Below, piece by piece: positions 4,177 through 56,336 of a DNA stretch of 56,336 nucleotides; positions within the stretch are counted from its first letter, which is position 1, and each line of letters opens with the position of its first letter. Both the position numbers and the translations under genes were made by a program. Below the pieces are notes generated by a model. The model saw nothing but the letters and a program-made list of their open reading frames with translations, made no database searches and was not told where the DNA came from. The stretch comes from Caldilineales bacterium (GTDB lineage: Bacteria; Chloroflexota; Anaerolineae; J102): assembly GCA_013360575.1 (NCBI GenBank), contig JABWBG010000012.1, forward strand, positions 1 to 56,336, written 5' to 3'.

Positions 4177-4250
4177 TAATTAATGATTCATGATTAATGA
4201 TTAAAAACCGCGCTCGTACGTGGCGCTTTAATCCTCAATCATGAATCATT
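4161..4250. repeat. AT-rich AATGATT-type simple-repeat hairpin overlapping the truB stop
   Basis: aatgattaatcattaataattaatgattcatgattaatgattaaa (4161-4205) is an imperfect inverted repeat of tttaatcctcaatcatgaatcatt (4227-4250), around a GC-rich loop. The same AATGATTAAT motif recurs at 38402-38430. Confidence 0.75.
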
Positions 4251-4315
4251 TGTCAAGGGCAGACTGCGGTAAAATCAACCATGCCCAACCGTCTATCATC
4301 TGAACGGATCACGCC

Positions 4316-5777: not shown

Positions 5778-6299
5778 TCATCCTGGCGGCGGCTCCGCCA
5801 TGTACGCCTCCCAGATGTCGGTGAACACGCCGGGGGCCAGGGGGTAGATCTGGCGCAGCATCTCCATCGCCACCTCCCGCACCTCCCACTGCGCGGCTTT
5901 GTCGATGCGCAGCCAGAAAAAATGCCGCAGGGCCGCATAATCCATCGACATCACCAGCCGGGTCTCGGCCGCGTTCGGCAACAGAAACCGGGCGTCCTCC
6001 TTGCGAATACCCAGCCCGCGCAGGCGCTCGTAGGCCTCCTGCACCTCGGTCCAGGCCTGATCGAGCACCGCCTGGGCCGCGGGCTGCGCGGCCAGCGCCG
6101 GCGGAGACACCGGCTCCCAGCCTCCCTTATCCAGGCTGACATAGCGCTGCGATTCCTGGCTGAAGGAAGCCAGACGATGCCGCACGATCTGATGGCTGCA
6201 CGTGCGGGAGATGCCTTCGAGCAGAAAGGTGGCGCCGCCGTGCTTCTCCGGCTGCGGCACATGGGCGATGGGCACATAGCCCAGCAGCGTGACTTTCAT
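5778..6299 (-). CDS. thyX: Flavin-dependent thymidylate synthase, short form carrying the catalytic core
   Basis: ATG at 6299. ThyX signature FLLEGISRTCSHQIVRHRLASFSQESQRY, plus C-terminal LRHFFWLRIDKAAQWEVRE. Only 173 aa; it lacks the usual N-terminal GHxxxxEH region. Confidence 0.85.
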   Translation of the reverse strand: MKVTLLGYVPIAHVPQPEKHGGATFLLEGISRTCSHQIVRHRLASFSQESQRYVSLDKGGWEPVSPPALAAQPAAQAVLDQAWTEVQEAYERLRGLGIRKEDARFLLPNAAETRLVMSMDYAALRHFFWLRIDKAAQWEVREVAMEMLRQIYPLAPGVFTDIWEAYMAEPPPG

Positions 6300-6751
6300 G
6301 CGCTCACCTCCCCTGCCGCCGGCGGCAGATCGGCGTAGACCGCGGGAATGGCCTGATAGGCCAGCCGCACCATCGCCGCAGCCAGATCGCTGCCCGAACG
6401 CGTCCAGAAATCGCGCACATTGCGGGCGTTGAGGCTGAGGATCCAATCGCCCCCGCCCAGATCGGTGTAGGCCACCGTGGGCAGGTTCACCAAGGCCAGC
6501 AGCGTGTGATCCAGCGGCTGATCCTCGAGCTTGAACACAAACCGGGTGTGCTCGACGATGTCCTCATGCCCTTCGCGCACGCGGGCCATGATGAAACCGG
6601 GATTGTGGCCCATTTTGGCGTCGGAGCGGTAGCACACCCGCCCGGCAAATTCGATCAGATTCTCTTGAAAGGTGCCCTGCCCCTGCCGCAGGGGGTGATC
6701 TGCGGGGATGCCGGGATGGGGCTGTGTGTACGCCAACAATGTCAATTGCAC
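6296..6751 (-). CDS. ThyX-like paralog lacking the RHR..S..RY motif
   Basis: GTG at 6751 is preceded by AGGAG. Contains LIEFAGRVCYRS, REGHEDIVEHTRFVFKLE and WILSLNARNVRDFW (ThyX-like N-terminal and C-terminal elements) but no RHR motif. Its stop overlaps the thyX ATG (ATGA at 6296-6299). Confidence 0.7.
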   Translation of the reverse strand: MQLTLLAYTQPHPGIPADHPLRQGQGTFQENLIEFAGRVCYRSDAKMGHNPGFIMARVREGHEDIVEHTRFVFKLEDQPLDHTLLALVNLPTVAYTDLGGGDWILSLNARNVRDFWTRSGSDLAAAMVRLAYQAIPAVYADLPPAAGEVSA

Positions 6752-10166: not shown

Positions 10167-10403
10167 AGAAAAAGCCAGCCGGGCCAGCGGCTGGCTTGCA
10201 AAAGATGATGGCTTTGTAGTCCCCCGTCGCACCGTGTGCCTGGGTAGCTTTGAACCTGCTTACGCAGGTGGGTGCCTTGACCTGGTTCTCGCCTTGCCAA
10301 TCGAGGGCTATCGCGTTCCCCAGTGTATGACCTGGCTCCCGAAGGTCTGATGTTGGCTCAAAACGTATCAGAGGCATCACGCATGCAAGAGGGGAGCTAC
10401 AGC
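10167..10403 (-). ncRNA. Candidate structured small RNA (6S-like rod with a large asymmetric internal bubble), including its intrinsic terminator
   Basis: Has its own promoter (TTGTCA-17 nt-TAGACT, 10436-10408). The 5' segment GCUGUAGCUCCCCUCUUGCAUGCGUGAUGCCU pairs with the 3' segment AGGCACACGGUGCGACGGGGGACUACAAAGC in about 23 bp with small bulges. There is an internal GNRA hairpin ACCUGC-GUAA-GCAGGU. Terminator AGCCAGCC..GGCUGGCU + UUUUCUU at 10196-10167. The only ORF here (92 aa) looks non-coding. Confidence 0.45.
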
Positions 10404-11498: not shown

Positions 11499-11557
11499 GG
11501 ACGATGGACGATGGACGATGGCGTGATCTATCGTCTATCGTCTATCGTCCATCGTCC
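11499..11557. repeat. GACGATG/CATCGTC heptamer-repeat hairpin between convergent folD and aspS
   Basis: ggacgatggacgatggacgatgg - cgtgat - ctatcgtctatcgtctatcgtccatcgtcc. The arms are tandem heptamers. The mismatches are G:T, so they pair as G:U only in plus-strand RNA. Confidence 0.85.
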
Positions 11558-17809: not shown

Positions 17810-17953
17810 AAAACGCAAAGGCGCAGAGGTACGCAAAGGTACGCAAAGTTTTTTTGTTTTTTTCTTTGCGTACCTCTGCGCCTTTGCGTTAAATCCTCAT
17901 CTTCTCTGCGTTCCTCTGCGTTCTTTGCGTTAAAATCCTGATCTTCTCTGCGT
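17810..17953. repeat. ACGCAAAG/CTCTGCGTT-type hairpin element plus degenerate direct repeats downstream of the giant gene
   Basis: 27-bp perfect stem: aacgcaaaggcgcagaggtacgcaaag (17812-17838) against ctttgcgtacctctgcgcctttgcgtt (17864-17890), with a T-rich loop. It is followed by two copies of aaatcct(c/g)atcttctctgcgtt (17891-17912 and 17932-17953). Confidence 0.85.
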
Positions 17954-17963
17954 TGAATCTCTC

Positions 17964-18816: not shown

Positions 18817-18845
18817 TTGACAGCCCGCGGGCAGGCTGCTATACT
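18817..18845 (+). promoter_or_regulatory. Near-consensus sigma70 promoter of the LacI-headed operon
   Basis: TTGACA (18817-18822), 17-nt spacer, TATACT (18840-18845). Confidence 0.65.
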
Positions 18846-19915: not shown

Positions 19916-19948
19916 CCCAACCAACAAACCAACCAACCAACCAACCAA
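19916..19948. repeat. (CCAA)n tract forming the leader of the Zn-dehydrogenase gene
   Basis: ccccccaaccaacaaaccaaccaaccaaccaaccaa. It has no nearby inverted partner. It is the same repeat unit as the arms of the elements at 25609-25764 and 34701-34905. Confidence 0.8.
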
Positions 19949-19959
19949 GAGATACCACC

Positions 19960-21117
19960 ATGAAAGGCTTAGTTTTGGATGCCGCCTGGCATCCCAAATC
20001 ACATTACAAAGTCAGCGACTGGGAAAAACAAACCGGCAAGGCCATCACCGGCAACAGCATCTGGCACAATCCCACTCTCGAAGTGCGCGAATGGCCCGAT
20101 CCCAAAGTCGGCCCGCAGGATGTGCTGCTGGAAATCCAGGCCTGCGGCGTCTGCGGCTCGGACATGCACTTCTACGAGACCGACGCCGACAACTACATCC
20201 TCTATCCCGGCCTCACCAAATTTCCTACCATCCTTGGCCATGAATTCTCCGGCAAGGTGGTGGAGATCGGCAAGGATGTGAAAATGCTGCAGGTCGGGGA
20301 TTACGTCACCGTCGAGGAGATGATCTGGTGCGGGCGCTGCACACCCTGCCGCAACGGCTATCCCAACCATTGCACCAATCTCGAAGAGATCGGCTTCACC
20401 ATCCCCGGCGCGTTCGCCCGATATCTGGCCGTGGATGAGAAATTCTGCTGGAAAGTGGACGGGATTCTCGACCGTTTCGGCCTGGAAAAGGGGCTGGAAG
20501 TGGCGGCCTTGAGCGAGCCGACCAGCGTCTCGTACAATGCCATGTTCACCCGCGGGGGCGGCTTCAAACCGGGCCATTTCGTCAGCGTGTTCGGGCTGGG
20601 GCCTATCGGCCTGGCCGCGGTGGGGCTGGCCGAGGCTGCCGGCGCCGGCATGATCGTCGGGTTCGAGGTCTCGGCGCAGCGCCGCCAGATCGCCAAGCAA
20701 CTGGGCGCGGACGCTCTCTTTGACCCGCGCGAAGTCAGCCCGCACGAGGTGATGAACGAGTTGAGCAAAGGCGTGGGCTTCGATTTCCATGTCGAGGCCG
20801 CGGGCGCGCCCCATCTCACCGTGCCGGAGATGGAGAAAGCGCTGGCGATCAACGGCAAGGTTATCCAGATCGGCCGCGCTGCCCAGAGGGTGCCGATGTA
20901 TTTGGAGACTTTCCAGGTGCGTCGCGGCCAGTTCTTCGGCGCGCAGGGGCATTCCGGCCACGAAAACTTCCCGAATGTGGTGCGCATGGTCGCATCCGGC
21001 CGCCTCGACCTCAGCCCCATCATCACCGCCCGTTACGGCCTCGATGACGCCGTCGCCGCCATCGCTCAATCCACCGAGCGCCGCGACGGCAAGATCATGG
21101 TCAAACCGGGGCAGTAA
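19960..21117 (+). CDS. Zn-dependent medium-chain dehydrogenase (scyllo-inosose 3-dehydrogenase IolM-like / sorbitol dehydrogenase family)
   Basis: ATG at 19960. Zn-ADH motifs ACGVCGSDMHFYE and GHEFSGKVVEIG. GLGPIGLAAVGLA Rossmann segment. Confidence 0.85.
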   Translation: MKGLVLDAAWHPKSHYKVSDWEKQTGKAITGNSIWHNPTLEVREWPDPKVGPQDVLLEIQACGVCGSDMHFYETDADNYILYPGLTKFPTILGHEFSGKVVEIGKDVKMLQVGDYVTVEEMIWCGRCTPCRNGYPNHCTNLEEIGFTIPGAFARYLAVDEKFCWKVDGILDRFGLEKGLEVAALSEPTSVSYNAMFTRGGGFKPGHFVSVFGLGPIGLAAVGLAEAAGAGMIVGFEVSAQRRQIAKQLGADALFDPREVSPHEVMNELSKGVGFDFHVEAAGAPHLTVPEMEKALAINGKVIQIGRAAQRVPMYLETFQVRRGQFFGAQGHSGHENFPNVVRMVASGRLDLSPIITARYGLDDAVAAIAQSTERRDGKIMVKPGQ

Positions 21118-21278
21118 TCAGTGGTCAGTATTCAGTAATCAGTATTCAGTAATCAGTATTCAGTAATCAGTATTCAGTGTTCGGTATTGGGTATTTGGTA
21201 TTGGGCATTCAGTGTTCAGCGATCAACGATCGCTTTTTGCTGAAAGCCAAATACCGAATACCGAATACCCAATACCAA
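21112..21278. repeat. CAGTATTCAGTAAT tandem repeat plus GGTATT/AATACC hairpin element
   Basis: Four 14-mers span 21126-21181. The arm ttcggtattgggtatttggtattggg is complementary to ccaaataccgaataccgaatacccaatacc (21247-21276). Confidence 0.85.
21218..21238 (+). terminator. Canonical intrinsic terminator nested in the loop of the repeat element
   Basis: agcgatc-aac-gatcgct followed by ttttt. Confidence 0.6.
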
Positions 21279-22318: not shown

Positions 22319-22380
22319 TATTGGATATTGGGTATTAGATATTTTTACACTCAAACAAATATCTGATATCCAATACCAAA
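22319..22380. repeat. AT-rich GGATATTGGGTATT / AATACCAA imperfect hairpin
   Basis: ctattggatattgggtattagatattt .. aaatatctgatatccaataccaaa. A related single arm is at 24736-24758. Confidence 0.6.
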
Positions 22381-22409
22381 CAACCAATAAAGGACAAAAA
22401 AGCTAAAAA

Positions 22410-23558: not shown

Positions 23559-23718
23559 GCAGTGGTCAGTATTCAGTATTCAGTATTCAGTAATCGGTAA
23601 TCAGTGGGCGGGCAGGCAACCCAGCGGTCGAAACTCTGCCCACTGACTACTGAATACTGAATACTGAATACTGAATACTGCCCACTGATTACTGACCACT
23701 GACTACTGACTACTGACC
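23559..23718. repeat. Long CAGTATT/AATACTG heptamer-repeat hairpin running up to the next start codon
   Basis: The left arm (23559-23615), cagtattcagtattcagtattcagtaatcggtaatcagtgggcgggcag, is the inverted repeat of ctgcccactgactactgaatactgaatactgaatactgaatactg.. (23636-23718). The ATG of the next gene is at 23719, with no SD. Confidence 0.9.
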
Positions 23719-24732: not shown

Positions 24733-24765
24733 TCAATATCCAATACCAAATATCTAATAACCAGC

Positions 24766-25608
24766 ATGAACCTAGCGCAAATCAGCCAAAACTACGATTT
24801 CAGTGGCCGTACGATTGTAATCACCGGCGGGGGCGGGGTGCTGGGCGGCGAGATCGCCGCGACCCTGGCCGGCTGTCATGCCAACATCGCCATTCTCGAC
24901 CGGGACATGCGCTTAGCCGAGCGGGCGGCGCAGCGCATCGCCGAATTGCCGGGCATGCAGGCGCGGGCCGTGGCGATCGATGCCGATGTGCTCGACAAAG
25001 CCTCGTTGGCCAAGGCCGAAGCCCGCGTACACAGCGAATTTGGCCGCGTCGACGGCCTGATCAACGCCGCCGGCGGCAACAAACCGCAGGCCACCACCTC
25101 GCCCGACCTCGCTTTCTTCGACCTGCCCGCGGAGGCGCTGCGCTTTGTCTTCGACCTGAACATCCTGGGCACGATCCTGCCCAGCCAGGTGTTTGGGCGG
25201 GGCATGGCCGCGCAGCAGGAGGGCGTGATCCTGAATATCTCTTCGATGAACGCGTTTCGTCCGCTCACCCGCATCCCCGCCTACTCCGCGGCCAAGGCCG
25301 GCGTCAGCAATTTTACGCAGTGGCTGGCGGTGCACATGGCCCAGGAATACTCCCCGCGCATCCGTGTCAACGCCATCGCGCCCGGCTTCTTCCTCACCGA
25401 GCAGAACCGCTTCCTGCTCACCGACACTGCCACCGGCGAGCTGACCCCGCGCGGCCAGACGATCCTGGCGCACACGCCCATGGCCCGCTTCGGCGACCCC
25501 GCCGACCTGCTGGGCGCGGTGCTGTGGCTGCTCTCCCCCCTCTCCCAATTCGTCACCGGCATCGTCCTCCCCATCGACGGCGGCTTCTCGGCCTTTAGTG
25601 GGGTTTAG
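24766..25608 (+). CDS. SDR-family oxidoreductase (D-mannonate / gluconate 5-dehydrogenase-like)
   Basis: VITGGGGVLGGEIA (TGxxxGxG), NAAG, and the YSAAKAGVSNFTQWLA catalytic YxxxK. Confidence 0.8.
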   Translation: MNLAQISQNYDFSGRTIVITGGGGVLGGEIAATLAGCHANIAILDRDMRLAERAAQRIAELPGMQARAVAIDADVLDKASLAKAEARVHSEFGRVDGLINAAGGNKPQATTSPDLAFFDLPAEALRFVFDLNILGTILPSQVFGRGMAAQQEGVILNISSMNAFRPLTRIPAYSAAKAGVSNFTQWLAVHMAQEYSPRIRVNAIAPGFFLTEQNRFLLTDTATGELTPRGQTILAHTPMARFGDPADLLGAVLWLLSPLSQFVTGIVLPIDGGFSAFSGV

Positions 25609-25764
25609 GTTGGTTGGTTAGTTGGTTAGTTGGTTGGTTAGTTGGTTGGTGGGGATTGCCGATAAACACGCAAACCTACCAATTTACCAATCTACCAATT
25701 TACCAATCTACCAATTTACCTACCAACCAACAAACAAACCAACCAACTAACAAACTCCCCCCCC
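25609..25764. repeat. TTGG / CTACCAAT / CCAA composite hairpin element with conserved core
   Basis: The (TTGGTTAG)n arm (25609-25653) is followed by the core ggtggggattgccgataaacacgcaaac, then 3 x ctaccaatttaccaat, then a (CCAA)n arm that runs up to the ATG at 25765. Confidence 0.9.
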
Positions 25765-27027: not shown

Positions 27028-28544
27028 ACAGCGGCGCGGGCGTGATCCCGGCTCATCAGGCCGAGCCGCCGCTGGTGCTGGCGCTGGATGTGGGCAGCTC
27101 ATCCATCCGGGCGTTGGTTTTCGACCGGTTGGGCCGGGCGATCGCTGGGCTTGAGGCGAAGGAGCCGCATGCGTTCCGCACCGACGCGGCCGGCGCATCT
27201 GAGGCCGACCCCGACGCGCTGCTGCAATTGATCTTCGCCTGCATCGACCGCGCGTTGCAGGCGGCAGGCCCGCTGGCAAATGCCATCGCCGCGGTGGCCG
27301 CCGATACTTTTGTCAACAACATCCTCGGCATCGACGCGCATGGGCGGGCCATCACCCCACTGACCACCTATGCCGACACCCGCGCCGCCGGCGAGGTGGC
27401 GGGCCTGCAAGCCGATTTCGCCGAAGCCGAGACGCACAACCGCACCGGCTGCCGCTTCCATCCCAGCTATCTGCCCGCCCGCCTGCGCTGGCTGCACCGG
27501 GCCGATCCCGACCTTTTTCGCGCGGTCGCCCGCTGGGTCTCGCTGGACGAATACCTCAAGCTGGCCCTGTTCGGCGAGGCCGCGGTCAGCACCTCGGTGG
27601 CAGCCTGGACCGGCCTGCTCGATCGGCGGCGGCTGATCTGGGATGAGCCATTGCTGGCGGGGCTGCCGATTACAGCCGGACAACTGTCGCCCCTGGTCGA
27701 TGCCGATGCCGGCCAGCAGGGAGTGCGCCCAGTTTTTGCCCGGCGCTGGCCCTCGCTGGCGCAGATCCCCTGGTTCCCGGCCATCGGCGATGGCGCCGCG
27801 GCCAACCTGGGCTGCGGCTGCGTCGGCCCGGAGCGCGTGGCCCTGACCGTGGGCACCTCCAGCGCTCTGCGCGCGGTGGCCGTCGCCGATGCCCCGCAAC
27901 TGCCCTCCGGTTTGTGGTGCTATCGCGTCGATGCCCGGCGTTCGTTGCCCGGCGGGGCTTTGACCGAGGGCGGGTCGGTCTACGCCTGGATGCGCCAGAC
28001 CCTGCAATTGGACGATCCCGCGGCGGTGGAGCAGGCATTGGCGGCAATGCGCCCGGATGGGCATGGGCTGACCCTGCTGCCCCTGTTCGCTGGCGAGCGC
28101 AGCCCCGGCTGGGTCGGACACGCCCGCGCCACATTTCATGGCCTGACGTTGGCGACCACGCCCCTGCACCTGCTGCGGGCCGGGCTGGAAGCCGTGGCCT
28201 ATCGCATTGCCCTGGTCTACGCCCAGTTGCGGCCGCTGTTGCCCGCCGAGCCGGAGATCATCGCCGGGGGTGGGGCGCTGCTGGCCTCGCCGGCCTGGTT
28301 GCAAATCATGGCCGATGTGCTGGGCCGGCCCGTCATCGCCTCGGCTGCGCCCGAAGCGACGGCCCGCGGCGCCGCGCTGCTGGCGCTCGAGGCCATCGCC
28401 GCGCTGCCCGACCTATCACAGGCCCCGGTTTTCACCGGCGATGCCTATCTGCCCAACCCCGACCATCACGCCATCTACACCGCCGCCATTGCCCGCCAAC
28501 AGCACCTGTACCAGCGGGTGACCATCCTGACACTTGACACTTGA
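27024..28544 (+). CDS. FGGY-family carbohydrate kinase (gluconokinase-like)
   Basis: ATG at 27024 overlaps the LarA-homolog stop (ATGA). LALDVGSSSIRALVFD, AIGDGAAANLGCG and IIAGGGALLASPAWLQIMADVLGRPV. Confidence 0.8.
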   Translation: MNSGAGVIPAHQAEPPLVLALDVGSSSIRALVFDRLGRAIAGLEAKEPHAFRTDAAGASEADPDALLQLIFACIDRALQAAGPLANAIAAVAADTFVNNILGIDAHGRAITPLTTYADTRAAGEVAGLQADFAEAETHNRTGCRFHPSYLPARLRWLHRADPDLFRAVARWVSLDEYLKLALFGEAAVSTSVAAWTGLLDRRRLIWDEPLLAGLPITAGQLSPLVDADAGQQGVRPVFARRWPSLAQIPWFPAIGDGAAANLGCGCVGPERVALTVGTSSALRAVAVADAPQLPSGLWCYRVDARRSLPGGALTEGGSVYAWMRQTLQLDDPAAVEQALAAMRPDGHGLTLLPLFAGERSPGWVGHARATFHGLTLATTPLHLLRAGLEAVAYRIALVYAQLRPLLPAEPEIIAGGGALLASPAWLQIMADVLGRPVIASAAPEATARGAALLALEAIAALPDLSQAPVFTGDAYLPNPDHHAIYTAAIARQQHLYQRVTILTLDT

Positions 28545-28568
28545 CACCTGGCACCTGACACCTCCCCC

Positions 28569-29216
28569 CTACCCCTCCGCCGCGGCAAACACCTCCGCCA
28601 CATCCACGGCAAAGCCCTGCAGCAGCACCGACGTGGCCTGCTGGCCCGGCGTGAAGCGGCCATGTTCAGCGTAGCGATCCCCTGCCAGCGTCAGCACCAG
28701 GATCTCCGCCCGCTCTTGATCGACAATCCAATACTCGGGGATGCCTGCCTGCGCATACTCCCGCCGCTTCGTTTCCGTGTCGTGCCGCCGATCCTTTGGG
28801 CTGACCACCTCCATCACCAAATCCGCGCCGATCCAGAAACTTTCGGTGCGCCGTGAGGCATTTTTCCGGGCCATAAACACCAAATCTGGCTCGCGGAACT
28901 TACCCGGCCATAGCCGCACTCGTAAAGGAGCAAACAAAACCAGTCCTAATCTCTGCGCCAAAACAAACTGCTCCAATAGCTTGAACAGCAGTCTTGTGAT
29001 CAGTTGGTGTGATTGAGTCGGCATCGGAACCACCTCCAAATGGCCGTGCGAGAATTCGATCAGGTGATTGGTATCCAACGCCAGATATTCTTCCTCGTCC
29101 CAATGCCCCTGCGCCCGATGTTCCAGGTCGGTTCTGCCTCCTCTGGTCGCAGATATTCGAGTGTTTGCATACATGCCTCCGTGAGCGAAACGGCTATCAG
29201 GCCCCGATCCTATCAT
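28569..29216 (-). CDS. Uma2-family (DUF820, PD-(D/E)xK-like) putative endonuclease, copy A
   Basis: EEYLALDTNHLIEFSHGHLEVVPMP, FREPDLVF, ADLVMEVVSPKD and IPEYWIVD. ATG at 29216 after GAGGAA. Confidence 0.75.
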   Translation of the reverse strand: MIGSGPDSRFAHGGMYANTRISATRGGRTDLEHRAQGHWDEEEYLALDTNHLIEFSHGHLEVVPMPTQSHQLITRLLFKLLEQFVLAQRLGLVLFAPLRVRLWPGKFREPDLVFMARKNASRRTESFWIGADLVMEVVSPKDRRHDTETKRREYAQAGIPEYWIVDQERAEILVLTLAGDRYAEHGRFTPGQQATSVLLQGFAVDVAEVFAAAEG

Positions 29217-29292
29217 AATTTCCTCACCCTGTCGAACCCCCTCTGCCCCATACCATCCTGACACTTGACACCTGGCACCTGACACCTCCCCC

Positions 29293-29949
29293 CTACCCCT
29301 CCGCCGCGGCAAACACCTCTGCCACATCCACGGCAAAGCCCTGCAGCAGCACCGACGTGGCCTGCTGGCCCGGCGTGAAGCGGCCATGTTCAGCGTAGCG
29401 ATCCCCTGCCAGCATCAGCACCAGGATCTCCGCCCGCTCTTGATCGACAATCCAATACTCGGGGATGCCCGCCTGCGCGTACTCCCGCCGTTTCGTTTCC
29501 GTGTCGTGCCGCCGATCCTTTGGGCTGACCACCTCCATCACCAAATCCGCGCCGATGAAATACTGTTCGGTCTTGCGATCTCGATGCGATGCGAGCATGA
29601 ACACAACATCTGGTTCCCGAAATTTTCCCGACCACAATTGCACGCGCAGCGGCGAAGTCAAAGCCTCGCCCAGCCTCCGGCTTTTCACAAATCGAGACAG
29701 AACTTGTACCAGAAAAAGGACAATGCGTTGATGCGATAAGGTCGGCATCGGAACCACCTCCAAATGGCCGTGCGAGAATTCGATCAGGTGATTGGTATCC
29801 AACGCCAGATATTCTTCCTCGTCCCAATGCCCCTGCGCCAGAGTTGCGCGATGTTCCAGGTCGGTTCTGCCTCCTCCGGTCGCAGATATTCGAGTGTTTG
29901 CATACATGCCTCCGTGAGCGAAACGGCTATCAGGCCCCGATCCTACCAT
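29293..29949 (-). CDS. Uma2-family putative endonuclease, copy B
   Basis: Same N- and C-terminal sequence as copy A with a divergent middle (..SHQRIVLFLVQVLSRFVKSRRLGEALTSPLRVQLW..). ATG at 29949. Confidence 0.75.
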   Translation of the reverse strand: MVGSGPDSRFAHGGMYANTRISATGGGRTDLEHRATLAQGHWDEEEYLALDTNHLIEFSHGHLEVVPMPTLSHQRIVLFLVQVLSRFVKSRRLGEALTSPLRVQLWSGKFREPDVVFMLASHRDRKTEQYFIGADLVMEVVSPKDRRHDTETKRREYAQAGIPEYWIVDQERAEILVLMLAGDRYAEHGRFTPGQQATSVLLQGFAVDVAEVFAAAEG

Positions 29950-29981
29950 AATTTCCTCACCCTGTCGACCCCCTCTACCCC

Positions 29982-30800
29982 ATGAAACTCTCACTCGTCC
30001 TCTCCACCCAACCAGCGCGGTTCGACGCCGTGGCCTTCAAAGGCGACCTGGCCGCCAATTTTGCCAAGATCGCCGGCTGGGGCTATGACGGCGTCGAACT
30101 CGCTATCCGCGATCCCCGGCTGGTCGACGCCGAAGCCATCGCCGATCTCGCTCGCGGGCACGGCCTAGCCATCCCCGCCATCGGCACCGGCCAGGCCTGG
30201 GGCGAAGAGGGCCTCTCCTTCACCGATCCCGATCCGGCCATCCGTGACGCCGCTATCGCTCGCGTGCACAGCCACATCCCCCTGGCCGCTCGTTTCGAGG
30301 CCGTGATCATCATCGGCCTGCTGCGCGGGATCGTGCGGCCGGGGCTGGCGCCGGGCCAGGCCATGGCCCTGCTGGTCGATGCATTGCGACAAAACTGCGC
30401 CGCCGCCGCCGAACAGGGCGTGCGCATCGCCCTGGAGCCGATCAATCGCTACGAGACCACCCTGATCAACACCGTGGCCGAGGGTTTGGAACTGATCGAA
30501 AAGGTCGGAGCGCAAAATTTGGGCTTGCTGCTCGACACCTTCCACATGAACATCGAGGAGCCTGCGATCGAGGCCAGCATCGCCGCGGCGGGAGACCGTA
30601 TCTTCCACTTCCACGTAGCCGATTCCAATCGCTGGCCGCCCGGCGGCGGGCACATCGACTTCCGCTCCGTACTCGACGCCCTGTTTGCCGCCGGCTACGA
30701 CGGCTTTGTCTCCGGCGAGTTCCTGCCCCGGCCCGACGCGGACAGCGCCGCGGGCCAGGCCATCACTTTTCTTCGCTCACTTTCTCCTTTCCATGATTAG
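29982..30800 (+). CDS. Xylose-isomerase-like TIM-barrel sugar isomerase/epimerase (IolO-like 5-keto-L-gluconate epimerase candidate)
   Basis: YDGVELAI, RIALEPINRYET, LLDTFHMNIEE and FHFHVADSNR (metal-binding E/D/H/E pattern of the AP-endonuclease-2/TIM family). Confidence 0.75.
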   Translation: MKLSLVLSTQPARFDAVAFKGDLAANFAKIAGWGYDGVELAIRDPRLVDAEAIADLARGHGLAIPAIGTGQAWGEEGLSFTDPDPAIRDAAIARVHSHIPLAARFEAVIIIGLLRGIVRPGLAPGQAMALLVDALRQNCAAAAEQGVRIALEPINRYETTLINTVAEGLELIEKVGAQNLGLLLDTFHMNIEEPAIEASIAAAGDRIFHFHVADSNRWPPGGGHIDFRSVLDALFAAGYDGFVSGEFLPRPDADSAAGQAITFLRSLSPFHD

Positions 30801-33732: not shown

Positions 33733-33816
33733 GGTGGACGATAGACGGTGGAGGATAGACGGTGGACGATGGATCACGCGTCGCCATCGTCCATCGTCTA
33801 TCCTCCATCCTCCGCC
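33733..33816. repeat. GACGATG-family hairpin between convergent genes, right arm overlapping the ROK gene 3' end
   Basis: ggtggacgatagacggtggaggatagacggtggacgatgg - atcacgcgtcgc - catcgtccatcgtctatcctccatcctccgcc. The loop is the reverse complement of the loop of the 11499-11557 element (GGCGTGATC core). Confidence 0.8.
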
Positions 33817-34700: not shown

Positions 34701-34905
34701 GTTGTAGTTGGTTGGTTGGTTGGTTGGTTGGTTGGTTGGTTGGTTGGTTTGTTGGTTGGTTGGTTGGTTGGTAGATTGGTAGATTGGTAGATTGGTAAAT
34801 TGGTGGAGATCGCCAAAAAAAAACGAGAACTCACCAACCAACCAACAAACAAACCAACAAACCAACCAACCAACAAACAAACAAACAAACCAACCAACCA
34901 ACCAT
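34701..34905. repeat. Largest TTGG/TAGATTGG/CCAA hairpin element (arms about 65-100 bp) with conserved core
   Basis: A (TTGG)n + (TAGATTGG)3 arm (34706-34806) is followed by the core ggtggagatcgccaaaaaaaaacgagaac, then a (CCAA/CAAA)n arm (34831-34905). It fills the whole gap between two minus-strand genes. Confidence 0.92.
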
Positions 34906-34909
34906 CACC

Positions 34910-35398
34910 TCACGACAAAGGTTCGAGCAGGATTACGGGGATATGGCGAACGCCGACGCGCTGCGCGTACTGCCGGTAGCCGGGATAGCGGCGCACCGCC
35001 TCCTGCCACAGCGCCTCCCGTTCGGCCCCTTCGGTTTCGCGGGCCAAATACGCGGCCTCGCCCTGGCCTTGCACCGCGGCCCGCACCTGGGGATGCTTGC
35101 GCAGGTTGTGGTACCAGCCGGGATAGTGTTTCTGACCCCAGTTGGAGGCGATGACCACATAACCGCCCCCGGCCACCGGCAGGCTGAGCAGGGGCGTGGT
35201 GCGGGGCAGGCCACTCTTGGCCCCGGTGGTGGTGAGCATGAGGACGGGCAGACCCGTAAGCAAGCTGGCGGCGGAGCGCCGGCCCCCTGTCAGCCGGAAC
35301 ACCGGCCTGTCCAGGTGATGCATGATCCGGGAAAAAAGGTAGGTGCCGGCGAGGGAACCGGCCAGAGCGCGGGTGAAGCGGTAGAAAAGAGAGGTCAT
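34910..35398 (-). CDS. Deazaflavin (F420)-dependent nitroreductase/quinone reductase family protein (DDN-like)
   Basis: LMLTTTGAKSGLPRTTPLL, VVIASNWGQKHYPGWYHNLRKHPQV. AAGGAG upstream of the ATG at 35398. Confidence 0.75.
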   Translation of the reverse strand: MTSLFYRFTRALAGSLAGTYLFSRIMHHLDRPVFRLTGGRRSAASLLTGLPVLMLTTTGAKSGLPRTTPLLSLPVAGGGYVVIASNWGQKHYPGWYHNLRKHPQVRAAVQGQGEAAYLARETEGAEREALWQEAVRRYPGYRQYAQRVGVRHIPVILLEPLS

Positions 35399-35424: not shown

Positions 35425-35497
35425 GTGGACGAAGGACGAAAGACGATAGACAAAAGTTCGCGTTACCATCGTCCATCGTCCATCGTCTATCGTCCAC
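35425..35497. repeat. GACGAAG/CATCGTC-family hairpin overlapping the rarD stop
   Basis: gtggacgaaggacgaaagacgatagac .. ccatcgtccatcgtccatcgtctatcgtccac. Confidence 0.75.
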
Positions 35498-37312: not shown

Positions 37313-38401
37313 ATGCCAGATATCACACCCGAACCTGTGAACCCGCCGCCGCTGACCGATCGCGGCTACAGCTACCGCGTCGGCACCGAGCTTTATCTGG
37401 TGCGGCATGGCGAGTCGATGACCAACATCTATAGCAACATCGTCACCTATGACCCCAATCTCACGGCGCTGGGCTGGGCGCAAGCCCTGGCCGTGGGCCG
37501 GTGGATGGCGGAACACGTCCCGGTCGATGTGGTGATCACCTCTGCCCTGCGCCGCGCGCACAGCACGGCCCTGGCCATTGCCCACGCTCAGGGCCTGCAA
37601 CCGATCACCGTGGCCGGGTTGGAGGAGTTCAGCCTTGATTTTTGGGAAGAGCTGCCCCTGCATCACCCCACCCAGCCCTGGCTGGGCCGCTGTGAATGGC
37701 AGGCGACCAGCGCCGGGCAGCCAGCTTTCGTGGCCTTTCGCGACCGCATCCACGCCGCCCTGGCCGCGATCCTGGCCGAATTCAACGGCCAGCGCATTTG
37801 CCTGGTCAGCCACGGTGGGGTGATGAATGTGATCACCGCGGCCATGCTCGGCAGCAGCCACCTCTCATTGTGGACGGAAAACACCGGCATCAGCCATTTT
37901 CTGTGGCCAGAGTGGCAACGCTGGCTGGCCACGTATATCAATCGCCGCGAACACCTGCTCAGCCTCGACCCCGCCGCGTACCCGCGTGTACCCGAAGCCA
38001 CGCCTGCTGGCAACGGCCAGTTCGCTCTGCCCGATCGCCTGATCCGATCCTGGGCCGACCTGCCCGCGTATCCGGCGCTGGCCTTCCTCAGCAACCGGTT
38101 GCGCCGCAGCGACCGTATCCTCTTCCTGCGCCCACCCGACCCGATCACGCCGCTGCGGGTATCGCTGCGGGCGCGCAGCGCGGCCATCCTGCATGATGAC
38201 CTGGCCGCGCTGGAGATAGGCGAACTGCGCCGGGCCACACTCAATGCCAACCACATCCGTTACCAATACCTGTTCACCCCCCTGCCCTATGCCGACGGCC
38301 ACTTCGACGTGGTCGTAGCGCCGGCAGGCGACCCCGCCCTCGCCTCCGAAATCACCCGCGTCCTCAAACACCCCGATGGACTGATCGAGATGAATTCGTA
38401 A
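37313..38401 (+). CDS. Histidine phosphatase family protein with a C-terminal degenerate methyltransferase-like domain
   Basis: LYLVRHGESMTN (RHG motif) and LVSHGGVM. C-terminal PLPYADGHFDVVVA..EITRVLKHPDGLI resembles Methyltransf_11, but the GxGxG site reads ILFLRPPDP. Confidence 0.7.
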   Translation: MPDITPEPVNPPPLTDRGYSYRVGTELYLVRHGESMTNIYSNIVTYDPNLTALGWAQALAVGRWMAEHVPVDVVITSALRRAHSTALAIAHAQGLQPITVAGLEEFSLDFWEELPLHHPTQPWLGRCEWQATSAGQPAFVAFRDRIHAALAAILAEFNGQRICLVSHGGVMNVITAAMLGSSHLSLWTENTGISHFLWPEWQRWLATYINRREHLLSLDPAAYPRVPEATPAGNGQFALPDRLIRSWADLPAYPALAFLSNRLRRSDRILFLRPPDPITPLRVSLRARSAAILHDDLAALEIGELRRATLNANHIRYQYLFTPLPYADGHFDVVVAPAGDPALASEITRVLKHPDGLIEMNS

Positions 38402-38553
38402 TGATTGATAATCAATGATTAATGATTAATTATCGAATACCGAATACTGACCACTGAATACTGACCACTGAATACTGACCACTGAATACTGACCACTGAA
38501 TACTGACCCCTGAATACTGACCACTGAATACTGACCACTGACCCCTGACCCCT
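38402..38553. repeat. AATGATT motif followed by about 7.5 tandem copies of CTGACCACTGAATA, abutting the uvrA ATG
   Basis: 14-bp units run from 38447 to 38553 with variants (ctgacccctgaata). There is no inverted partner. uvrA starts at 38554 without an SD. Confidence 0.9.
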
Positions 38554-41490
<2,937 letters not shown>

Positions 41491-41496
<6 letters not shown>

Positions 41497-41643
41497 GTCA
41501 GTTGCACGACCGCCCAGCGATTCAGCTCGATAGCGAGTCGCTGCAGGCGGTTGCCTTATCTAAGTGCCTTCTAAGTGAGTTGCACGACCGCCCAACGATT
41601 CAGCTCGATAGCGAGTCGCTGCAGGCGGTCGTGCAACTCACTT
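41491..41643. repeat. 79-bp tandem duplication that includes the uvrA stop codon; the second copy closes into a 19-bp perfect hairpin
   Basis: ttctaagt(c/g)agttgcacgaccgccca(g/a)cgattcagctcgatagcgagtcgctgcaggcgg occurs at 41491 and 41570. agtgagttgcacgaccgcc (41575-41593) pairs with ggcggtcgtgcaactcact (41625-41643). Confidence 0.85.
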
Positions 41644-49062: not shown

Positions 49063-50823
49063 TCAGGAAGAGGGGATGGTCAACCGCTGGCCGGGGTAGA
49101 TGCGGTTGACATTCTTGATGTGGTTGATCTTGCGCAGTTCGGCGACGGTAACGCCGTAGCGGGCCGCGATCTGGCTGAGGTACTCGCCGCGACGCACCAC
49201 ATGCACCCTGGCCGCGGTGCTGTCCGTGTCAGTGGTCGTGGTGGTGGTGGTCGTGGTTGTGGTTGTGGTGGTCGTCGTGGTCGTGGTGCTGGTGGTGGTC
49301 GCCGGGCAGGGCGTCTTCAGCACCTGTCCCACATAGATGCGGTTGACATTCTTGATGCCATTCTGCGCGGCCAGCGCCGACACCGTGGTGTGGTATTTGG
49401 CTGCGATGGCGCTGAGCGTGTCCCCGCGCTTGACCACGTAGGTGCAGGTCGAGCTGCCGCCATTGCTGCCGCCTTCCACCGTGGTCACGGTGCGGCATTT
49501 GCGCAGCGCCGCCTCATCGAAATCGAAATCAACCTCCCGCTCCACCGTCGCCCACTTCTTCAGACCCAGCAGGTAGATCATCAGATCCGAGCTGGGGGCG
49601 GTGAAGGTCATGCGATAGGGGCTGTAGGCGCCGGGCGCGGTGCGAGAGAAGATGCCGGAGACTGCTGCGCCGTACCGGGCATCGAGATCGGCCACCGCGG
49701 CCACAGGTTTGACGCCTGCCTCGTACCCCCAATGCACTTCGTAGCGATTCGGGTCTTCATCGCTGTAATCGCCGGCCTCACGGATCATGCTCTGGAAGCT
49801 GATCTCGTAGGTGGCGCCCTTGCTCAGGTTGCGCACGCCCTGATAGATGCCGATGAAGCGATCCGGATCGCTGAGTGTGCGGCCATAGGTGTTGATCTCC
49901 AACAATTGGGCGTGCTTGCCCGCGGCTACCACAGCCGGCCAGGTGTCGTCATAGAAGCCAAAGGCCGCGGCGCCGCCATTCTGCAAGGGCCCCCAGCTCT
50001 TGCCGGTGCCATCCGCATCGAAGCCAGACTCGAAGCCACCATTTTTGAGCAGATTGGGGCCATCGCACACCAGTCTGGTCACCGTCTTGGGCGCGGGCGC
50101 GGGCGCGGCGCCGGTGGAGGGTGCGGGTGTAGTAGGGGTGGGCGCGGGCGCGGCCGGGGCCACACCCTTCAGGGAGACGCCGTCGATATTGAAATCGACC
50201 TCCCGATTCCAATCGCCCCACTTCATCCGCCCGGCGATGAACACTGTCAGTTTGTTGCCGGTGGCCTTGACCGGCACGCTGACCGTGTGATAGCCGCTCG
50301 GGTTGAGGCGATCCTGGATGGGGCCGGCGTTGACTTCCTGCCACACGGCATCAGCCCATTTCTGGCCGCCGCTGTGGTCGAAGCCGACCAGCATCACGTA
50401 GCGCCAGGGATCGCCGCCCGCGGCCAGGTCATCGGCCCGGATCATGGCCTTGAAAGCCAGTTGATAGGTCTGGCCCTTGACCACATTCAGGGTCTGATAG
50501 ATGCCGGCGGTGCGGTTCTGATCACCGAACTGGCCGCGCGTGTTGATCTCGATCATCTGGGCGTGGCTGCCCTCGGCGATGGCGCGGCCCCAGCCCTCGT
50601 CATAGAAGCCGTAGGCGGCGCGGCCGCCGCTGGTGAAGCAGTTCCAGTCATTGCCCACCATGCCACAGCCGCCGCGGGCGCTGAAGCCGGACTCGAACCC
50701 GCCGTTGCGCAGCAATTCACCGGTCGTGGTTCCGCCGGCCAGGGTCGTCCAAGCGGCCACGCTCAGCATCAACGCCAGCGCCACGGTAAGAGCCAGCCAT
50801 GCCGATTGTTTCGATATTTTCAC
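49063..50823 (-). CDS. Secreted protein with two CBM-like jelly-roll domains and two C-terminal LysM domains joined by a poly-Thr linker
   Basis: GTG at 50823 after AGGAGGA. Signal/TM segment [21 protein letters not shown]. Duplicated LL(R/K)NGGFESGF modules. LysM: [16 protein letters not shown] and [17 protein letters not shown]. The linker has about 27 Thr. Confidence 0.85.
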
Positions 50824-54530: not shown

Positions 54531-54565
54531 GGGCGTAAAACGTGGTGCGTGGTGCGTGGGGGGGG

Positions 54566-54679
54566 GGTAGGTTGGTAGATTGGTAGATTGGTGGGTTTTC
54601 GTGTTTTTTGGCGATCCCCACCAATCTACCAATCTACCAATTTACCAATTTACCAATCTACCAATTTACCAACCTACCA
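54566..54679. repeat. TAGATTGG/CTACCAAT hairpin element with conserved core, right arm overlapping the ruvX 3' end
   Basis: ggtaggttggtagattggtagattggtggg - ttttcgtgttttttggcgatcc - ccaccaatctaccaatctaccaatttaccaat... The reverse complement of the core (ggggatcgccaaaaaacacgaaaac) matches the cores at 25650-25677 and 34803-34830. Confidence 0.9.
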
Positions 54680-55065
54680 AAAAAGTTCTGTAAAATGGCG
54701 GCGGCGGCGATGTCGTCGTTGTGGCGGCGACGGCGGCCGGTTTCGGCCAGGATCTGGTCGGCCTCGAAGCTGCTCAGGCGCTCGTCCCACAGGGTGAGGG
54801 GCAGGCCCAGGACGCGGCGGAGTTGCTCCGCGAACTTGCGCACCCGCTTCGCCTGCAAGCCTTCGCTGCCATCCATGTTCAGGGGCAGGCCCACCAGCAA
54901 GTGCTCGGCCCCGCAGCCCGCAGCCTGCCGCGCCAACGCCTCGAAATCCGCGCGCTTGCTGCTGCGGGTGAGGATGCCCAGGGGCCGCGCCAGCCGGGCG
55001 TCATCGGCGCCGGCAGCCAGGCCAATGCGGCGATCGCCAACATCGAGGGCAAGATAAATGGTCAT
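54658..55065 (-). CDS. ruvX: Holliday junction resolvase-like nuclease RuvX (YqgF)
   Basis: MTIYLALDVGDRRIGLA.., LLVGLPLNMDGSEG and WDERLSS. The ORF-track start at 55071 is a TTG; the ATG at 55065 is preferred. Confidence 0.88.
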   Translation of the reverse strand: MTIYLALDVGDRRIGLAAGADDARLARPLGILTRSSKRADFEALARQAAGCGAEHLLVGLPLNMDGSEGLQAKRVRKFAEQLRRVLGLPLTLWDERLSSFEADQILAETGRRRRHNDDIAAAAILQNFFGRLVNW

Positions 55066-55101: not shown

Positions 55102-56336
55102 TTACAACGGGCCCTCCAGCACCCGCACGCGGATGCGCGTGGGAATCCAGGGGATGCGGCCCAGCCAGTCCGGCGCCAGGGTGATCTGAGGGGGCGCGGC
55201 CAGGGCCAGGGAGCGTTGCAACAGAGGCCCTGCCTCCACCAGAGGCGCGCCGGCCAACAAGCTGCGCACCTGGGCAGTCGAGATCGGTACCAGGGCCTCC
55301 GCGCTGGCGGTGAGGGTGAAAGAGAGAGACTCGTTGCCAAAGCGGGTGTAGGCCGGCTCGCCCACGCGCAGGCTCTGATCCAGCAAAAAATGCCCCTCAG
55401 GCACACCCTCGCGCAAAGAACGACGGGCCAGCATCTCCGCCGCGGTCACATCCACGGCCAGGCCGCGGGCCAATAATTGCAGTTGTAAGCCCAGCACATC
55501 CGACACCTCGCCATTGAAACGGTCGTAAGTCTCGGCCAGGGTGAAGGTGCGCACCGTTTCCACAGGCACCGCCTCGCCCTGACGCAGGCTTTCCGCCAGC
55601 CGGGCATAGGCCTGCTGCTGCAATTCCGCCTGCAACTGCCCCAGCACCCGTTCCTTGTCCGCCTGCGTCACCACCGCCACACTTTCCACCGAGCCGCCGC
55701 TGGCCGGGGCCGGGTTGCTCACGCGCAGGCTGATGTTCAGGGGGCCTTCGATCTCGTTGATCGTCAGCGCCGGCACATTCCCCTGCCTGCCCGGCTCCAC
55801 CGCTTCCACCAGCACCCGCGCCTGCTGGCCCACGCCCGCCGGCACTGTCATCTCCTCCTGCACCCGAAACCGCACATTGTTGCCCGTGGTCGTGCGCACC
55901 ACCGTCGTTGTCGGCACCAGGATCTCGCGGTTGGTTTGGTTGATCAGGGTGACGTTGGTCGTGGCCTTGCCCAGGGGCGCGTTCTCCACCCCGGTGGTCA
56001 GCACGGTGGCAAAGCCATCCACCTGCGCCTGCACGGCCCGCGCTGGCGTCAGGCGATTGAGATAATCGGCAGCATCGATGCCCACACGCGCGGTCACATC
56101 GATGGAGCTGACAAGCCGGGTGCGGGCCGGGATCAGGGTGACGGTGGCTTGCGGCAGCAGCAGCAGGGCCACGCCCGCCAGCCCGGCAGCGACCAGGGCC
56201 ACCAAGAGCAGGTAGCCCAGCGCCGTCACCCACCCGCGCGGGCGCGTCCGCCGCGTGCGCCCGGCCAACAGGGTCCGCCCCGGCAGGGTGACGATCTCCG
56301 GGGCCCGCAGTCCCAATCCCACCACCCGCGGAGGAG
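55102..56336 (-). CDS. Membrane-anchored protein with a baseplate-J-like segment; 5' end may lie beyond the window
   Basis: TM segment LLLVALVAAGLAGVALLLL. VEAVEPGRQGNVPALTINEIEG resembles the GxxGNV motif of the baseplate J/gp47 family. The frame stays open to base 56336; the nearest in-window start is a GTG at 56325. Confidence 0.45.
   Translation of the reverse strand, partial: PPRVVGLGLRAPEIVTLPGRTLLAGRTRRTRPRGWVTALGYLLLVALVAAGLAGVALLLLPQATVTLIPARTRLVSSIDVTARVGIDAADYLNRLTPARAVQAQVDGFATVLTTGVENAPLGKATTNVTLINQTNREILVPTTTVVRTTTGNNVRFRVQEEMTVPAGVGQQARVLVEAVEPGRQGNVPALTINEIEGPLNISLRVSNPAPASGGSVESVAVVTQADKERVLGQLQAELQQQAYARLAESLRQGEAVPVETVRTFTLAETYDRFNGEVSDVLGLQLQLLARGLAVDVTAAEMLARRSLREGVPEGHFLLDQSLRVGEPAYTRFGNESLSFTLTASAEALVPISTAQVRSLLAGAPLVEAGPLLQRSLALAAPPQITLAPDWLGRIPWIPTRIRVRVLEGPL

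Follow-up and report, generated by a model that had tools for sequence, protein, structure and literature searches.

The window analysed here is a 56,336-nt stretch of contig JABWBG010000012.1 (assembly GCA_013360575.1) in which long hairpins with arms of short tandem repeats occupy three spacers between genes. The DNA belongs to a Caldilineales-like Chloroflexota metagenome-assembled genome (MAG); the closest homologs of its MltG protein (at most 75% identity) are labelled Caldilineales, Caldilineae, Anaerolineae or Chloroflexi, and exact-protein look-ups located the window in several independent MAGs and Sequence Read Archive (SRA) assemblies. The MAGs include GCA_026645955.1, GCA_026647975.1 and GCA_013329015.1, and the SRA records SRR14520560, SRR22272411, SRR26328199, SRR25425397 and SRR30756391 also contain DNA of this organism. 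Element 1 lies within an 8-gene iol cluster, element 2 precedes a ROK kinase gene, and element 3 interrupts the conserved gene pair encoding RuvX and MltG (Table 1). These three, like every copy of the family that we have seen, lie in spacers between co-directional genes.

The three spacers follow a common plan, with a TTGG/TAGATTGG arm at the 5′ side, a CCAA/CCAATCTA arm at the 3′ side and between them a shared apex, GGTGGRGATYGCC, with an A-rich stretch. The elements measure 127-209 nt and their arms 27-95 nt. Tandem Repeats Finder (TRF) reports (GGTT)10.8 at 25608-25650, (TACCAATT)5.5 at 25677-25720 and (ACCA)9.5 at 25718-25755 in element 1, (GTTG)22.5 at 34707-34796 and (ACCA)18 at 34833-34904 in element 2, and the two arrays listed in Table 1 on either side of the core of element 3. 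When the transcribed strands are folded, the predicted free energies are -62.7 kcal/mol for element 1 (z -5.0), -107.5 kcal/mol for element 2 (z -10.4) and -65.4 kcal/mol for element 3 (z -6.3), and in all three the apex, here in its long form, is a single-stranded loop of 21-22 nt. In elements 1 and 2 the 8-mer array stands opposite a 4-mer array, which leaves a bulge of ~28 nt in the predicted stem.

An earlier note on this DNA had placed the elements correctly, although the spacer of element 2 runs on to 34909 and that of element 3 is 54531-54657. Its account of arms built from 4- and 8-nt repeats agrees with the TRF arrays; its statement that these arms are simply complementary does not hold for elements 1 and 2, given the mismatch of 8-mers and 4-mers just described. 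The same note had remarked that the arms run up to the start codons at 25765 and, on the minus strand, 34700, and into the 3′ end of ruvX (54658-55065, minus strand), and both are the case: the arm of element 3 supplies the last 7 codons and the stop of ruvX, so that the protein ends in GRLVNW. It had also pointed to a lone (CCAA)n leader before the gene at 19960, which is indeed present as (CCAA)8.

Table 1 Coordinates of the three elements and of other tandem-repeat features in the window
Feature	Position	Strand	Description
Element 1	25609-25764	+	Whole spacer from SDR gene (stop 25606-25608) to LarA-N-like gene (ATG 25765)
Element 1, 5′ arm	25609-25650	+	TTGG/TTAG 4-mers
Element 1, core	25648-25675	+	GGTGGGGATTGCCGATAAACACGCAAAC; forward relative to transcription; 60-64 bits
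Element 1, 8-mer array	25673-25720	+	CTACCAAT/TTACCAAT; bulged out in the predicted fold
Element 1, 3′ arm	25718-25755	+	CCAA/CAAA 4-mers; C8 tract follows
Element 2	34701-34909	-	Whole spacer from F420H2-dependent reductase gene (stop 34910-34912) to ROK kinase gene (ATG 34700)
Element 2, 4-mer array	34707-34767	+	(TTGG/TTTG)n
Element 2, 8-mer array	34768-34804	+	(TAGATTGG)4
Element 2, core	34802-34830	+	GGTGGAGATCGCCAAAAAAAAACGAGAAC; inverted relative to the minus-strand genes; 52-54 bits
Element 2, array after core	34833-34904	+	(CCAA/CAAA)n
Element 3	54531-54680	-	ruvX-mltG spacer (54531-54657) with the last 7 codons and stop of ruvX
Element 3, heptamer array	54541-54559	+	(CGTGGTG)2.7; G10 follows
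Element 3, array before core	54566-54592	+	(GGTAGATT)3.4
Element 3, core	54595-54622	-	GGTGGGGATCGCCAAAAAACACGAAAAC; forward relative to transcription; 66 bits
Element 3, array after core	54620-54680	+	(ACCAATCT)7.6
Lone (CCAA)8 array	19917-19948	+	G-poor leader of iolM (ATG 19960) without Shine-Dalgarno motif, partner arm or core
Other repeat hairpin	4161-4260		
Other repeat hairpin	11499-11556		
Other repeat hairpin	17813-17960		
Other repeat hairpin	21112-21276		
Other repeat hairpin	22319-22390		
Other repeat hairpin	23560-23717		
Other repeat hairpin	33733-33813		
Other repeat hairpin	35428-35496		
Lone array	24734-24763		
Lone array	38399-38553		

The sequence of element 1 is identical in two other assemblies, and the elements were recovered identical or nearly so in at least four independent assemblies; they are therefore not assembly artefacts. 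Between closely related strains the arms change in length. In a ~99%-identical strain (L004), element 2 has one arm shorter by 36 nt, the other longer by 12 nt and a loop lacking one T, while element 3 has gained one TAGATTGG unit (+8 nt) in L207 and has C9 in place of C10 in L208. Other arrays behave alike: a (TTGGTTTG)n leader located outside the window is 8 units long in L205 and 5 units long in L207, and an array of 14-nt units at 38442-38553 has one unit fewer in L004. No change between strains was found in element 1 or in the short heptamer hairpins. This is ordinary microsatellite behaviour, in which it is the long arrays that vary. The differences show, or at the least strongly indicate, that the arms are resized, as the earlier note had supposed, by slipped-strand mispairing, in whole-unit steps and on each side independently, and we have high confidence both in the identity of the elements and in these dynamics at the DNA level. 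The repeats also have practical consequences: they break short-read assemblies (contigs L209 and L210 both begin within the hairpin loop), they make gene callers extend open reading frames (ORFs) through arrays, and their length polymorphisms could be used as strain markers.

The shared core and its copies in this genome

The pattern GGTGGRGATYGCCRAWAAA has three matches in the window (25648, plus strand; 34802, plus strand; 54604-54622, minus strand) against 0.12 expected, a count that is circular to the extent that the pattern was built from these same three copies. Independent support comes from a scan of metagenomes with a pattern of the arms only, TTGGTARATTGGTARATTGG, which returned 120 loci; one of these (L185, JAANMW010000647.1) is another contig of the same MAG and holds a full long-form element between two co-directional genes, with the core and apex GGTGGGGATCGCCAAAGGACACGAGAAACCACC scoring 52 bits in nhmmer. 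Across 1.5 Mb of fetched DNA the core profile scores 52-66 bits on long-form copies and no more than 24 bits elsewhere. The ~16 kb of flanking sequence that we also read contains a spacer between smpB and a CitMHS gene (L213, 3330-3499) with two neighbouring hairpins that have TAGATTGG arms. These short forms keep the apex TTGGTGAAGATCG(C/T)C and lack the A-rich segment, so that TTGGTGAAGATCGYC is the sole part of the core retained. At least five loci of the family are thus present in ~85 kb of this genome, counting the window, its two flanks and L185.

The core of ~28 nt on which the earlier note had based the family does recur, and its appearance at a fourth locus of the same genome shows that it is not the chance A-rich loop that the note had named as a possible refutation. 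Its boundaries need redrawing, however: the initial GGTGGRG is a variant arm unit, and what is distinctive is GATYGCC with the A-rich segment of 15-16 nt. Across the family the apex reads TTGGTG-RR-GATCGYC, to which the long form adds that segment. The core runs with transcription in elements 1 and 3 and in L185 but against it in element 2 and the two short forms; the loop of the RNA would therefore be A-rich in some copies and U-rich in others.

Beyond this genome the core was not recovered. Among 58 arrays from other organisms with arms of this type, none has a GATCGYC apex in its loop, and of the 45 hairpins recovered by the arm-only scan none outside this genome has the core. A search of 185,579 species genomes with a core-plus-arm pattern gave 75 single matches in unrelated taxa, about the number estimated for chance, and the only match in Chloroflexi lies inside a coding region; this collection evidently lacks the present species, whose own copies went unmatched, and so it gives no copy number for the home genome. 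The core is a real feature of the family inside one genome and not general to the class of hairpins to which the family belongs. We infer that it marks the common descent of copies within that genome rather than a general binding site, since an RNA-binding site would not survive inversion, while a relic on the invertible spacer of an inverted repeat would, and flips in orientation are what such a spacer should show. The family probably spread by recombination between homologous repeat arms, and the GATCGCC apex may have some role at the level of DNA.

Two further candidates were set aside. The apex resembles GGCGATCGCC, which would suggest a genome of the HIP1 type, but GCGATCGC occurs just 5 times in the window against 2 expected. 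A mini-stem within the core, with TCG...CGA in three copies and TTGC...GCAA in element 1, differs in register between copies, and with only four sequences we claim no covariation. As a separate observation on base composition, GATC occurs 518 times in the window against 183 expected (2.8-fold), and GGCGATC and GATCGCC are ~4-fold over-represented.

Repeat-armed hairpins as a wider class in transcribed spacers

The elements do form one family, as the earlier note had it, but they do not stand alone: they are one set among many repeat-armed hairpins in the window, and the TTGG family is a local variant of a larger class in the transcribed spacers of Anaerolineae and Caldilineales. Hairpins of the same design in other spacers of the window have arm units GGACGAT/ATCGTCC, CAGTATT/AATACTG, TATTGGA/TCCAATA, AATGATT/AATCATT and ACGCAAAGG/CTTTGCGT; the first units of these pairs, together with GAATACTGACCACT, are those found among the other hairpins and leader arrays. 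All of these hairpins have their G-rich arm on the 5′ side and their C-rich arm on the 3′ side, and loops are not shared between copies. TRF gives periods of 4 and 8 nt for the three elements, against 7 or 14 nt for the hairpins next to them, and most hairpins of the window have arm units of 7-14 nt. When all window spacers of at least 25 nt were folded, strong folds (z of -3 or lower) were found in 11 of the 21 spacers between co-directional genes, in 3 of the 5 between convergent genes and in none of the 5 between divergent ones (one-sided p ~0.04); among the three convergent hairpins, one continues into the ROK gene, and most of the strong-fold hairpins have tandem-repeat arms.

The polarity of the arms is the most regular property of the class. 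G-C skew is higher in the 5′ half than in the 3′ half in all 14 hairpin spacers of the window, and among the metagenome loci of the arm-only scan, the 45 arrays that have a partner arm all show the order G-rich arm, loop, C-rich arm. This order reads alike on both strands and therefore belongs to the element, whichever strand is read. By approximate, frame-based gene calls the metagenome hairpins lie in 19 co-directional, 2 convergent and 1 divergent spacers, where the calls are rough and at least one locus (L156) looks mis-called. One of the loci (L152) is from another Anaerolineae lineage, with a MetK 95% identical to that of 'Chloroflexi bacterium HGW-Chloroflexi-1'.

A comparison at one orthologous site separates architecture from sequence. 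Between ahcY and metK, four of five Anaerolineae relatives (MetK 87-99% identical) have repeat-armed hairpins, each made from a unit unrelated to those of the others (TAGATTGG, AAATAGCAAACTGC, GGAAGAA and GGGTATC); L216, the remaining relative, has an ATGA overlap of the two genes. At this site the architecture recurs and the sequence does not, and the comparison shows, or strongly implies, that repeat units turn over completely between related species. The relatives' spacers in the pfkB-ahcY-metK cluster likewise carry repeat-armed hairpins, and downstream of metK a G+C-rich stem followed by a T-run was seen in 3 of the 4 regions inspected. The site of element 3 gives a different picture, in that the orthologous ruvX-mltG spacers of three relatives measure 9-87 nt and lack the element, and the C-terminus of RuvX in the window is ~17-25 residues (about 20) shorter than in those three; intrusion of arrays into 3′ ends of ORFs is seen here directly. 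No relative between 75% and 100% MltG identity was available for this comparison.

We also considered how the stems sit relative to the genes. Of 18 co-directional spacers, 16 have an outermost predicted helix that begins no later than the upstream stop codon, and in 12 it ends no more than 13 nt from the downstream start; in the predicted fold of element 2 the stop and start codons lie a few nucleotides from the foot and are paired with each other. The genes behind CCAA arms (iolM and those for the LarA-like protein, the ROK kinase and MltG) lack a Shine-Dalgarno (SD) motif, and the final 30 nt before them contain 0-4 G (2 G for iolM, behind the lone (CCAA)8 array), while a clear SD is present in about half of the other genes. 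Scans for promoter and terminator consensus found no site within the elements, and the loop is not an obvious sigma-70 promoter. In the iol cluster the sole strong sigma-70-like match is upstream of lacI, the LacI-family gene that heads the cluster, with none in the repeat-bearing spacers. The elements are thus confined to transcribed spacers, with a strictly polar arm order and stems that reach from stop to start, and the arrangement of the genes suggests that they are probably transcribed with their operons. The lacI promoter itself (18817-18845, plus strand; TTGACA, 17 nt, TATACT and an upstream TG) is a near-consensus sigma-70 site, and its spacer is the only long one of the cluster without tandem repeats.

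Two other repeat structures were observed in this genome. A second dispersed family, with GCGCAGAGG/ACGCAAAGG and CTTTGCGT units and T-rich centres, is found at the unlinked loci 17813-17960 and L185 711-1100. The spacer between uvrA and a GAF gene is a different kind of element, with two 63-nt direct repeats (41489-41551 and 41567-41629, ~97% identical), a predicted fold of dG -85 (z -8.0) and no short tandem arrays; in L004 it is 11 nt shorter at 41569.

Known systems and alternative explanations

Several known repeats invite comparison. Repetitive extragenic palindromic sequences and the bacterial interspersed mosaic elements made from them (REP/BIME), in enterobacteria and pseudomonads, are palindromes of ~20-40 nt with a fixed sequence and a GTAG-type head, and are linked to REP-associated tyrosine transposases (RAYTs); they lie in transcribed spacers, are rare in divergent promoter regions and act in the protection of mRNA 3′ ends and in attenuation. 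The distribution over spacers in the window is the same, but the elements here are 127-209 nt long, with microsatellite arms of changing length and conservation of the apex motif only. Miniature inverted-repeat transposable elements (MITEs) and Correia elements are small, dispersed and non-coding, have inverted ends, and can fold in mRNA and be cut by RNase III; in MITEs the terminal inverted repeats and the length are fixed and there is a target-site duplication, whereas the ends here are length-variable microsatellites. The earlier note's judgement that the elements are neither a classical REP/BIME nor a MITE with fixed ends is consistent with all of these differences. Mycobacterial interspersed repetitive units (MIRUs) are variable-copy repeats that abut stop and start codons in the intercistronic spacers of operons; position and strain variation are alike, although MIRU units of 40-100 bp with small ORFs have no counterpart in the inverted arms of the present elements. 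In Rfam, the sole match in the window at the gathering threshold is a 6S RNA and no family fits the elements; in E-value mode only sub-threshold matches to eukaryotic miRNA precursors appear, on both strands, as generic long hairpins would give. A search of the literature on intergenic repeats of Chloroflexi and Anaerolineae, and on the assembly accessions, found no description of these elements.

[quoted passage not shown] Both systems place short tandem units in intergenic DNA where a hairpin can form between genes of one operon, and the heptamer-armed hairpins that accompany the TTGG family in the window look alike. The differences are that the host is a member of Chloroflexota and not a cyanobacterium, that the TTGG family has units of 4 and 8 nt and not the classical 7, and that an apex motif and a long A-rich loop are common to its copies. 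To our knowledge, neither a strict order with the G-rich arm first nor a span from stop to start has been described for STRR. STRR hairpins are the closest known system, and the present class is their Chloroflexota counterpart; it is widespread in Anaerolineae and Caldilineales, resembles repeats of the STRR and REP kind and is apparently undescribed.

Two other systems bear on single aspects. TAACTGA heptamers in marine Beggiatoaceae, Cyanobacteria and Bacteroidetes lie directly upstream of the starts of unrelated genes in SD-less spacers (MacGregor 2015, PMC4679880), and a translational role has been proposed for them; in the one genome for which sets were counted, 169 were direct repeats and one was indirect (PMC4679880). 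That picture suits the (CCAA)8 leader and other arrays that stand alone, whereas the elements themselves have a different unit sequence and inverted arms that form long hairpins. In the 5′ untranslated region (UTR) of Haemophilus influenzae hmw1A, a heptamer-repeat hairpin is an RNase III substrate and repeat number tunes expression (PMC12721329). There, as here, one side of a long hairpin lying upstream of a gene consists of tandem repeats, but hmw1A is one virulence locus, and the partner arm in its 5′ UTR is G-rich and non-repetitive, while in the present genome both arms are repeats and the hairpins are intercistronic and found genome-wide. Among experimental models for how the elements might act, hmw1A is the best.

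The best explanation overall, on which we find belief and doubt about evenly balanced, is that the elements are palindromes generated by slippage and transcribed inside operons, forming a genome-specific family of the wider class. That they have a function in RNA is a more tentative proposal, which we lean towards doubting and which draws on predicted structures. If they do, the RNA would fold into a long stem whose foot encloses the upstream stop codon and either the G-poor, SD-less leader or the next start; with the spacer looped out in this way, the downstream gene would rely for its translation on a ribosome opening the foot, as in translational coupling. Alternatively or in addition, the long duplex might be a site of processing or stability, through an RNase III-type cut or as a barrier to 3′ exonucleases. 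Arm length would then tune the effect on the downstream gene or the mRNA, and any such function would be structural and independent of the sequence of arms and loop.

A number of points weigh against a function of this kind. Selection at the RNA level was not detected, as the sense strand gave the stabler fold in only 9 of 18 cases (Wilcoxon p = 0.83) and had no excess of G-U pairs over the antisense strand, a symmetry that neither proves nor excludes function. The stems have large bulges (~28 nt in elements 1 and 2) and the two arms vary independently. The elements are also dispensable, being missing from the ruvX-mltG spacers of relatives and replaced by the ahcY/metK overlap in L216. Transcription through them is deduced from gene order, and the proposed coupling from predicted geometry; moreover, a fully paired leader would block initiation unless opened. 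Lastly, the few convergent spacers likewise have the G-rich arm at the 5′ side, so that an explanation based on leaders leaves the rule partly unexplained.

One may go further and postulate a sequence-independent intercistronic device, in use across Anaerolineae and Caldilineales and, by convergence, as STRR in filamentous cyanobacteria. A stem that loops out the whole spacer would bring the stop to an SD-less, G-poor start at its foot, the terminating ribosome would open this foot and re-initiate, the obligatory G-first order would keep the C-rich arm from exposure as a Rho loading site or free leader, and slippage would act as a heritable, graded dial on operon stoichiometry. We regard this full scheme as quite unlikely. 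C-rich RNA attracts Rho, and a G-rich arm that is transcribed first could sequester the C-rich arm at once; by this reasoning the hiding of the C-rich arm from Rho is a possible cause of the arm order.

The most serious competitor to the favoured account of slippage-generated palindromes transcribed within operons is that the hairpins are a neutral or selfish by-product of DNA metabolism, in which slippage expands arrays and template switching or recombination makes inverted copies, and which is tolerated in transcribed spacers and not in promoters while doing nothing. Though we think it somewhat unlikely, much of the evidence suits it: the hypervariability between ~99%-identical strains, the full turnover of repeat units at an orthologous spacer with loss in some relatives, the equal predicted stability of both strands, the imperfect and bulged stems, the invasion of the ruvX 3′ end at a cost of about 20 residues, and a 724-733-bp tandem duplication bounded by heptamer arrays. 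What it does not predict is that the arm order is never reversed (45/45 and 14/14), as the process is strand-symmetric; this rule is the main fact that a neutral model leaves unexplained. It also accounts poorly for hairpins at the same spacer in 4 of 5 relatives despite unrelated sequences, and for spacers nearly saturated with hairpins whose stems reach precisely from stop to start. The reading of the earlier note, a specific protein- or RNA-binding site in the conserved ~28-nt loop on a stem of variable length, fares worse and now appears improbable. The apex motif is common to all six family members seen in this genome, with GATCGCC in 6/6 apex loops (as GATTGCC in element 1 and GATCGTC in one short form) against a genomic frequency of ~1 per 1.1 kb in both orientations, and the long form keeps its single-stranded loop of 21-22 nt. 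Yet inversion of the core in half of these members would present the complement in RNA, the two short forms lack the A-rich two-thirds, neither the 58 same-arm arrays nor the 185,579 genomes (a collection that evidently lacks this species) yielded the motif in its setting, and hairpins of the same architecture at ahcY-metK have unrelated loops.

A non-autonomous mobile element, REP/RAYT-like or MITE-like, whose hairpin and GATCGCC apex are recognised by a transposase encoded elsewhere, would explain that one genome holds dispersed copies with the same apex, that these are absent from the orthologous ruvX-mltG site of relatives, and that their extragenic distribution avoids divergent promoter regions, as that of REPs does. 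We consider it very unlikely, as there are no fixed terminal inverted repeats, no target-site duplication is recognisable because the ends are repeats, the head motif and size differ from those of REPs, and no transposase is found among the called genes in the ~85 kb read from this genome, of which ~72 kb are contiguous; that relatives hold different arrays at the same spacers suggests generation in place and not insertion. Transcription terminators or attenuators, which would stop or pause RNA polymerase between genes, are about as improbable as a binding loop. Very stable stems in convergent and co-directional but not divergent spacers would suit them, and two repeat-armed hairpins do fill convergent spacers (11499-11556 and 33733-33813), but no T-tract follows the stems of the TTGG family, the terminator scan was blank in elements 1 and 2, the 3′ arms run into C/A-rich sequence and then ATG, and the hairpins lie inside conserved operons (ruvX-mltG, the iol cluster and pfkB-ahcY-metK, where in relatives stems with T-runs stand after metK in 3 of the 4 regions inspected). 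Lowest of all we place contingency loci, in which repeat number would switch the downstream gene by phase variation as in Haemophilus and Neisseria. Repeat number does differ between closely related strains, and (CCAA)n is a phase-variable unit in H. influenzae. The length of the hmw1A 5′-UTR hairpin can, furthermore, tune expression (PMC12721329). However, no surface or restriction-modification genes adjoin the elements, the neighbours being housekeeping or catabolic genes (mltG, the ROK kinase and LarA-like genes, and iol genes including iolM), the repeats occupy spacers, outside reading frames and with no -35 and -10 boxes around them, and hairpins in about half of transcribed spacers are unlike a small set of switchable genes.

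The main interest of these results is the clade-wide class and its invariant polarity, rather than the 28-nt core. The arm order (45/45) is a rule for which any model must account. If the hairpins act on mRNA, they would represent a common form of operon organisation in a large, mostly uncultured and unstudied phylum, with gene-to-gene coupling set by a structure whose sequence is free and whose size mutates fast, and a second independent lineage for comparison with the long-unexplained STRR hairpins of cyanobacteria. If they are mutational debris only, the description is still useful as that of an unusually repeat-prone genome architecture, and no more.

Other features of the window

The Rfam match is a 6S (SsrS) RNA gene at 10217-10397 on the minus strand (RF00013, 67.8 bits). 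A region with a Uma2-family gene is present as a tandem duplication of ~724-733 bp (28535-29258 and 29259-29987, 95-98% identity), which starts at (CCTGACA)n heptamer arrays (28526-28563 and 29257-29287) and is single-copy in L003 and L004; it could be array-mediated or an effect of assembly. An ORF of 586 aa (49063-50823, minus strand) contains a (GTG)n or 24-nt coding repeat at 49232-49301, and its product, for which no Pfam domain is on record, has 585 aa in some strains and 586 aa in others; the repeat may be a length-variable in-frame one. Two adjacent, overlapping ORFs on the minus strand (5778-6299 and 6296-6751) both match the ThyX domain PF02511, and the interval 5778-6751 may hold a split or frameshifted thyX. 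Between alaS and ruvX lies a gene for a Baseplate_J-domain protein of ~511-526 aa (55102-56336, minus strand), which is also found in the relatives L202-L204 and is an unusual conserved neighbour of this housekeeping cluster.

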